Of a stretch of 64,000 nt of DNA, positions 1-1,368 are shown piece by piece (within the stretch, counting starts at the first letter, position 1; each line of letters begins with the position of its first letter). Under the pieces are notes generated by a model. The model was not told the DNA's origin, did not search any database, and worked only from the letters and a program-made list of their open reading frames with translations. The DNA is from Albugo candida (taxonomy: Eukaryota), in assembly GCA_040437565.1 (NCBI GenBank), contig JBDOQK010000036.1, positions 248,001 through 312,000 of the forward strand, written 5' to 3'. The position numbers and the translations under genes are program-made.

Positions 1-1368
1 ATAGCCAGTGGCCTCAGGATGGTAATATAATCCTCCACTCAGAATCCCTTCCGTTCCCTTGTAACAGAAACAGTCGAATCTCATTTATATAATTGTTCAA
101 ACCGGTAAAGCGATACATACGCCGGGATGCAATTGTCGTAAGCGTTTATACTGTCCAAACATGTACCCGATTTCCTTGGGGCCGACACCGACTCCTGCTG
201 TAGGGATATCGGTATGTGGTCCAATGTAGTTTGCCAATTCGGTCATAAAACTTTGACAGAATCGCATCACTTCTGACTCGCTTTTATCGACCGGATTGAA
301 ATCAGATCCACCATTTGCTGCTCCATAAGGACCTGCAAGAGCATTACGAAACACACTTTCGAATCCAAGGGNNNNNNNNNNNNNNNNNNNNNNNNNNNNN
401 NNNNNNNNNNNNNNNNNNNNNNNNNNNNNNNNNNNNNNNNNNNNNNNNNNNNNNNNNNNNNNNNNNNNNNNGTACCCGATTTCCTTGGGGCCGACACCGA
501 CTCCTGCTGTAGGGATATCGGTATGTGGTCCAATGTAATTTGCCAATTCGGTCATAAAACTTTGACAGAATCGCATCACTTCTGACTCGCTTTTATCGAC
601 CGGATTGAAATCAGATCCACCATTTGCTGCTCCATAAGGACCTGCAAGAGCATTACGAAACACACTTTCGAATCCAAGGGCCTTCACGGTCCCATGATTC
701 AAATCAGGATGGAAGCGAAGACCGCCCATATATGGACCACAGGAGCTTGAAAATTGGACACGGAAGCCGCGATTTACTCTGCTGTTACCAGAATCATCGA
801 CCCAAGGAATCCGAAACTATACAGCAATATTAGATTTTGAAGTTTAGTGGAGCAGTAATGTACCTGAATCACACGCTCCGGCTCGATGAGAGTTTTCATG
901 ACCCACGCGTACTTTGGATACCGATCGAAGACTGGAACGACTGAATCGATGAAAACATTGACCGCTTCCAAGTATCTAGACAGATTTTGAGCACACGTGA
1001 CAATAGGAGCGCTCTCCAAAGTACTCGGTCTATATAGAGCGATTGGTGAGGCATTCCGCTTCGCTTTATGCGTTTTCTACCTGGTAGGGGTCCCTTCGTG
1101 TGCTTTCTTCCATACTACAGAGTGAATTACGTCGTTAGCGTCTAACATTTGTCTCGAGGAAGTTATGAGCTTACAGCATGTCGGCAGCCTCTTGACCATT
1201 GCGAAATCGTTTATCGCCTTCACGACGAAATAATGGCTTACTCTTCCAGTGTTTCTTTCCATGGGTTGTGCCATGAACGTCTGACATCAAAGAAGTCTTA
1301 TTTCGGATCGCCTGTTTTGATGCAATTAGTCTTGCAATCTGAGGCTGCGATCGCCATGATGTCCACAT
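1..1368 (-). CDS. NADP-glutamate dehydrogenase-like protein (catalytic residues substituted), multi-exon, 3' end beyond the window start
   Basis: Spliced model: exons 1368-1175, 1114-1081, 1029-1025, 975-~863, ~816-~121 (across a gap with duplicated flanks), ~58-1. It reads [74 protein letters not shown], collinear with GdhA-type GDH. Confidence 0.9.

Follow-up and report, generated by a model that had tools for sequence, protein, structure and literature searches.

The window analysed here, 64,000 nucleotides of Albugo candida DNA, carries at its left edge, on the minus strand, an oomycete gene for a 498-residue glutamate dehydrogenase (GDH) homologue. We derived its anatomy from a six-frame reading of the window plus 8.5 kb beyond it, in which GDH-like pieces appeared in several frames, and from a 1724-nt contig of run X1 that spans the gene and skips eight stretches, each of which is GT-AG on the gene strand. 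We read X1, whose record carries no RNA label, as a transcript because its contig lacks all eight introns; the contigs of X5 and X15 showed no intron joints. A sequence-only reading of this DNA had described an intact open reading frame, in place of which we found nine exons separated by eight GT-AG introns, with one exon of 5 nt. When spliced at the X1 joints, the gene reads as one open frame of 498 residues that begins with a start codon at 1368, the first ATG downstream of in-frame stops, and closes with a stop about 860 bases to the left of window position 1 (G000:C36:247140). The gene has the following features in the window.

1175 to 1368, minus strand: coding exon 1, with the start codon at 1368, presequence-like residues 1-27 and the arm; the X1 contig spans 1175-1381 and splices at 1175.
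1288 to 1368, minus strand: predicted mitochondrial presequence of 27 residues (3 R, 2 K, no D/E), called for this protein from composition only.
1195 to 1287, minus strand: family-defining N-terminal arm, residues 28-58 (VHG ... W..KPL.RR.GD..F..G), from conservation and an arm profile.
1081 to 1114, minus strand: exon 2, 34 nt, helix 1, from X1 joints with GT-AG ends.
1025 to 1029, minus strand: exon 3, a 5-nt micro-exon between GT-AG introns of 51 and 49 nt.
864 to 975, minus strand: exon 4, 112 nt, helices 2-3 up to the dimer strand, from X1 joints.
121 to 816, minus strand: exon 5, GDH dimerisation/substrate domain with replaced active-site residues (PF02812, E 9.9e-39; alignment to solved GDHs).
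163 to 680, no strand: assembly artefact, a 209-base overlap with one mismatch, written twice around a 100-N gap (372-471).
1 to 57, minus strand: start of exon 6, Rossmann domain (PF00208, E 3.0e-38); exons 6-9 continue outside the window.

The micro-exon corresponds to five extra letters flanked by one skipped pair in the X1 contig, and its inclusion restores both the frame and the match to orthologues. Orthologue models P0007, P0015, and P0018 are mis-spliced at this same site, suggesting a conserved intron position overlooked by gene predictors. Beyond the window, where a second, active GDH domain had been envisaged, the gene stops after one GDH unit. Database entries of 1500-1700 amino acids are fusions to a downstream kinase-like gene and are probably mis-predictions.

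The repeat within exon 5 might be taken for a tandem duplication, which we ruled out. Contigs of X1, X10, and X15, three of the four runs compared, skip 309 bases at the gap, and the true length of exon 5 after removal of the artefact is 387 nt. Ten of the 16 assembly gaps in the window (runs of 100 N) are flanked by duplicated overlaps of 29-567 bases, so apparent tandem repeats in the A. candida assembly deserve distrust.

Next to the gene, short Ser/Thr-rich open reading frames with hydrophobic ends (1517-1915, minus strand; 3975-4325, plus strand) resemble secreted or GPI-anchored surface proteins and gave no Pfam match. The further neighbors are a COQ5/UbiE methyltransferase (2257-3209, plus), a MYND-finger ubiquitin hydrolase (4535-7971, minus), a coiled-coil PH-domain protein (8847-10739, minus), and an SPX-MFS transporter (11966-14239, plus), none with an evident link to the GDH homologue.

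Presence of both the PF02812 dimerisation domain and the PF00208 Rossmann domain places the protein in the ELFV dehydrogenase fold superfamily, and at 498 residues it does not belong to the large NAD-GDHs (Bac_GDH/Gdh2 type; 1000+ amino acids, PF05088). The exon segment 472-816 aligns to residues 63-178 of E. coli GdhA (3sbo) and of Corynebacterium glutamicum GDH (5ijz). Counting along the 5ijz alignment, we observed the following replacements.

727 to 729, minus strand: Met at the position of E. coli K92, the gamma-carboxylate ligand.
664 to 666, minus strand: Ser at the position of E. coli Q113.
655 to 657, minus strand: Arg at the position of E. coli K116.
622 to 624, minus strand: Asn at the position of E. 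coli K128.
502 to 504, minus strand: Gly at the position of E. coli D168, the imino/amino ligand; Gly in 206 of 210 family members.

K128 is the catalytic lysine of GDH. The five motif changes that the sequence-only reading had reported are all present on the minus strand. The loss of the TGK motif needs qualifying, as part of that stretch falls at the intron at 58-120; the change itself persists in the spliced product and in orthologues. All five sites were canonical in 194 of 197 canonical GDHs compared, a set chosen on K92 and K128, so that only Q113, K116, and D168 are independent. Since these sites are so widely canonical and our protein is otherwise 44-46% identical to bacterial GDH over the core, we do not regard the five replacements as chance.

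Other ligands have changed as well. A report on an S. pombe GDH/2-iminoglutarate structure gives K77, Q98, K101, K113, D153, R192, N340, and S377 as ligands (PMC12301742). The first six map at an unvarying offset of 15, and N340 was matched through its motif; we thereby found seven of these at M145, S166, R169, N180, G220, H257, and Y401 of our protein, all changed, and the eighth, S377, falls in a poorly aligned stretch. In E. coli terms, the substrate and nicotinamide contacts R207 and N347 are His and Tyr here, and they are kept in 4 of 99 and 40 of 106 family members, respectively. The protein therefore has none of the residues of an active NADP-GDH (EC 1.4.1.4) at K92, Q113, K116, K128, and D168, nor at R207 and N347, and it very probably has no GDH activity, as judged from these positions.

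The replacements are not peculiar to this assembly. The closest named relatives are oomycete proteins, and we found orthologues in Phytophthora, Peronospora, Plasmopara, Hyaloperonospora, Pythium, Globisporangium, Aphanomyces, Saprolegnia, and Achlya, four of which, when compared, were 65-76% identical. None of 67 oomycete-clade proteins covering the five sites (a redundant set) has a canonical residue at any of them. Comparison of contigs with the assembly revealed 16 differences, four beyond the stop, one intronic, and 11 coding, and all 11 coding polymorphisms are synonymous. The gene is expressed, spliced, and under purifying selection. These findings bear out the earlier proposal of a conserved pseudoenzyme rather than decay, and the alignment to oomycete and stramenopile homologues suggested with it demonstrated that the active-site residues are replaced across the clade. 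In P. infestans, mass spectrometry detected the orthologue PITG_07671, under the name glutamate dehydrogenase (PMC6647872).

A feature missed by the sequence-only reading is the N-terminal arm, which sits before helix 1 and is common to the oomycete orthologues. Together with the start of helix 1, the arm is 90% identical to Phytophthora and 49-59% identical to ochrophyte orthologues. In a profile search of 1.84 billion representatives, 22 of the best 150 matches had the arm and none of these had both lysines. An arm-only profile then picked out 424 of 8000 scored candidates at E<=0.01, and named sources among the 120 matches listed were Nitzschia, Fistulifera, Cylindrotheca, Epithemia, Nannochloropsis, Phaeomonas, and oomycetes. 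With arm-bearers defined by a cut-off of 30 bits on the arm profile, K92 and K128 occurred together in none of 167 covering both sites. Among 209 arm-bearers with coverage of all five key sites, 179 have no canonical residue left, 25 have one, two have two, two have three, one has four, and none has all five. Searches with the arm elsewhere were negative: against PDB sequences the profile matched only three designed repeat proteins, by chance, and no PDB chain with the arm; and in the ESM Atlas the arm alone gave no usable match. There, the whole P. infestans protein retrieved only GDH-named clusters, the top one mostly diatom.

What replaces the canonical residues differs among lineages. The K92 position (n = 218) is E in 86, M in 34, A in 31, K in 12, and V in 12 family members, and the K128 position (n = 214) is V in 113, H in 35, A in 31, and S in 17; among the five sites only the D168-to-Gly change is near fixed. 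Such variation by lineage argues against a new catalytic site and is the pattern of a site released from its chemistry.

We examined the descent of the family with IQ-TREE, using 44 rows picked from 111 and leaving out the arm columns; the tree has no true root. The 23 family rows form one side of a branch with support of 99/86, with similar results in further trees, and the oomycete and ochrophyte-type rows group together at 99/97. Plant-type degenerate GDH was placed elsewhere, away from the arm family. The clade is common to oomycetes and ochrophytes, and its deep subgroups probably belong to further stramenopile lineages. The term paralogue used in the sequence-only reading is an understatement, as the protein belongs to a clade that spans the stramenopiles and carries the arm as its mark.

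The nearest row outside the family is P0203, which has intact lysines and a partial arm scoring 28.9 bits, just below the 30-bit cut-off. By its residues, P0203 may represent the active ancestor type of the clade. P0203 is a 319-residue fragment with a presequence-like start. In a metagenome scan for its relatives that kept 80 of 599 loci, none of the 80 matched the arm profile, and five that we examined were ordinary GDH genes. Within the family, a deep subgroup keeps up to four of the five sites (four in P0237, three in P0192 and P0249), and inactivity may not hold for every deep branch (P0237, P0192, P0249, and P0203). This subgroup (P0188, P0192, P0237, P0249, P0251, P0255, P0274, and P0312) has a longer N-terminus with an R/K..S.NSG motif before the arm, a possible phosphorylation site, and keeps EQxxK.

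The presequence-like N-terminus noted in the sequence-only reading exists, at 1288-1368 and outside positions 1 to 816 to which the gene had been assigned. By a crude test, a basic, acid-poor start occurs in 177 of 204 arm-bearers versus 8 of 191 canonical GDHs, the latter mostly bacterial. Mitochondrial location is further supported by Thaps3a_26192 of T. pseudonana, an orthologue by its arm and degenerate motifs, which is recorded in the Thalassiosira mitochondrial fraction with a TargetP call of M and the label GDH (PMC6683858). Other records likewise treat members of the family as GDH. A comparative table lists the Phytophthora and downy-mildew protein as glutamate dehydrogenase, and the P. 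infestans entry in its nitrogen-assimilation table is the arm-bearing protein alone (PMC6264045). The GDHs listed for P. tricornutum are GDH A, of NADP type and mitochondrial (J50971, model reaction GLUDH_m); GDH B, which is cytosolic; and GDH C, a mitochondrial enzyme of NAD type (PMC6779911). GDH A is probably a member of the clade. The papers mentioning members treat them as working GDH (PMC6647872, PMC6264045, PMC6683858, PMC6779911). Literature searches turned up no activity assay of a member, and we found no description of the clade as inactive in titles and abstracts, a coverage with subscription journals mostly outside it, so earlier notice is possible.

To define what the family has lost and kept, we compared columns between 20 family rows and 46 canonical rows. 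Of the columns conserved in canonical GDH, the family has lost 24, almost all of them located in the pocket for substrate and nicotinamide, and keeps 41; another 64 are conserved only in the family, a count inflated by the greater diversity of the 46 canonical rows relative to the 20 family rows. Conservation is new in the arm and helices 1-2, in two patches, one located at the Rossmann tip (ER.A..G.YI..ST.A) and the other near the C terminus (TA.EFN..GD), and at several arginines. Motifs in the interface regions, EPER..FRV.W.DD.G, RFCQS.MTEL..Y.GP, and GQYKR, are conserved, and we take these to form the GDH hexamer interfaces. At the cofactor site, G240 (115 of 115), D264 (114 of 114), K286 (110 of 114), R289 (90 of 112), and largely R292 are kept. 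In E. coli, K286, R289, and R292 are NADP determinants (PMC12364357). Set against the NADP fingerprint given in two sources, our protein keeps GSGxxA, the P7 Asp, and K286/R289/R292 and has lost the P8 Ser and K136 (PMC12364357, PMC12301742). These two 2'-phosphate ligands, as well as N243 and N347, are unconserved in the family, and on these residues nucleotide binding may have been lost too.

AlphaFold2 modeling of the P. infestans orthologue gave a GDH fold with pLDDT of 86.6-88.3 and a Foldseek TM score of 0.84 to 5gud. With a family-only alignment, arm residues 41-50 reached a pLDDT of 82, residues 1-33 remained below 50, and the loop that lost TGK was of low confidence.

We also searched the A. 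candida genome for other GDHs. Pfam and protein searches of its 7503 contigs, which may be incomplete, found no canonical small GDH, this locus being the only one of the small type. Two large NAD-type GDH genes of different subtypes, L013 (G000:C39) and L014 (G000:C10), have an intact lysine motif, GGSK. The second, canonical GDH that the sequence-only reading had thought worth seeking was thus not found among these contigs.

Our leading, still tentative reading is that the gene encodes an ancient mitochondrial pseudo-GDH of the small (50 kDa) NADP-type family that acts as a scaffold or regulator. After import, the protein would self-assemble through the kept GDH subunit interfaces. It would not productively bind glutamate or 2-oxoglutarate and might still bind the adenosine end of a dinucleotide. 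The basic arm and two newly conserved surface patches would dock on a partner outside its own family, making the protein a scaffold or regulator that responds to nucleotides and serves a carbon/nitrogen enzyme of the mitochondrion, with the large NAD-GDH and GOGAT as first candidates. What would tie the protein to a particular partner or to nitrogen metabolism is its ancestry and compartment. In evolutionary terms, and at a little under an even chance, the pseudo-GDH would be older than the oomycete/ochrophyte split, perhaps as old as all stramenopiles, would have outlived its active small-GDH partner, and would have become, via the arm, a mitochondrial nucleotide/metabolite sensor or a machine subunit.

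Protists re-use enzyme folds as subunits of ribosomal and respiratory machines. The protein might be a structural or RNA-binding subunit of a mitochondrial machine, such as the mitoribosome, its assembly line, or a respiratory complex, with the basic, Trp/His-bearing arm inserted into RNA or a neighboring subunit. We consider this somewhat unlikely. In favor of it, the arm is rich in Lys/Arg and varies very little, and half of it is unplaced in the monomer model; several arginines are newly conserved; and one gene is kept across very different metabolisms, obligate biotrophs included. However, no PDB chain carries the arm, although stramenopile complexes may be unsolved, and the kept GDH self-association motifs better suit a free oligomer.

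The sequence-only reading had also proposed an enzyme of new specificity. The kept Rossmann fold with a remodeled pocket could in principle serve another dehydrogenase or reductase, for instance a 2-oxo-acid reductase that pairs Arg at 116 with His at 128, and indeed Arg replaces K116 in 67 of 67 oomycete proteins and His replaces K128 in 49 of 67, with Gly at D168 family-wide and GxGxxA kept. However, at the K128 site 17 oomycete proteins have Ala, A. candida has Asn, and ochrophytes have Ser/Ala and Val; the nicotinamide-side N243 and N347 vary freely; and the pocket contains no other conserved residue that could be catalytic. With replacements that vary by lineage, new specificity is disfavored and, in our view, improbable.

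Third, the protein could join an active small GDH in a hetero-hexamer and serve there as the regulatory subunit, the arrangement of GdhA/GdhB in T. thermophilus and also an earlier suggestion. The interface motifs are kept, an active-type relative with a partial arm (P0203) branches beside the clade, and P. tricornutum has a second NADP-type GDH, although that enzyme is listed as cytosolic (PMC6779911). Against such a complex, the A. candida contigs yielded no other small-GDH locus, and the P. infestans entry in the nitrogen-assimilation table is this protein alone (PMC6264045). The lack of an active small GDH sharing the compartment, where this could be judged, argues against a Thermus-type hetero-hexamer, which we hold to be very unlikely. 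Finally, a pseudogene or assembly-specific decay, as the N gap, the repeat, and in-frame stops in the raw DNA might suggest, has a negligible probability, given that the stops are intronic, the gap is an artefact, the spliced 498-residue frame is open with only synonymous coding differences, oomycete orthologues are well conserved, and an orthologous protein has been detected by mass spectrometry (PMC6647872).

If this evolutionary scenario of a pseudo-GDH turned sensor or machine subunit is right, the protein would be an unrecognised, lineage-wide mitochondrial control point, and the "mitochondrial NADP-GDH" reaction in diatom and oomycete metabolic models would rest on a dead enzyme. If the clade is inactive, ammonium assimilation through NADP-GDH, as ascribed to these mitochondria, needs another basis. 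That a pseudoenzyme has been retained in lineages ranging from diatoms to obligate plant parasites indicates a conserved role in mitochondria, testable in genetically tractable algae.

Several arm-less small-GDH homologues lack K128 and/or K92 (P0198, P0200, P0209, P0221, P0227, P0252, P0277, P0282, P0319, and P0327). They are scattered in the tree, so GDH inactivation seems to have occurred many times. P0187 and P0220 are separate degenerate GDHs, and degenerate GDH domains are also fused to TIR_2 (P0286) and to EF-hand and calponin-homology domains (P0313).

Among known systems, the protein is closest in kind to the small NADP-specific GDHs (E. coli GdhA, C. glutamicum 5ijz/5gud, Plasmodium 3r3j/2bma, Babesia 9yis; NF006929), sharing their fold at about 40-46% identity as well as the GxGxxA motif and the K286/R289/R292 cluster. 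It differs from them in that all well-aligned substrate ligands are replaced and a conserved arm and presequence are added, and the P. infestans orthologue scores 478.7 against NF006929, under the cut-off of 536. Like the plant-type zinc-finger GDH-like P0187, it is an NADP-type homologue without K92, K128, and D168; P0187, in contrast, lies on a separate branch, has an N-terminal zf-C17orf113 instead of the arm, and keeps Q113 and K116. P0187 probably resembles the plant-type Arabidopsis At1g51720, which is reportedly inactive. T. thermophilus GdhA is likewise a GDH homologue without catalytic activity that is retained for regulation (PMC9570180, PMC12301742). Unlike our protein, GdhA belongs to another GDH subfamily (about 25% identity to the Thermus chain 3aoe_A), has no arm, and needs an active paralogue, which is apparently missing from this genome. 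Drosophila Bb8 is also a mitochondrial GDH paralogue with a specialised role, in sperm, but it is of the animal GDH type and retains GDH activity according to the abstract (PMC10652781). Inactive GDH homologues were thus already known; what is new here is an old, widespread eukaryotic clade with an arm of its own and apparently without an active twin.
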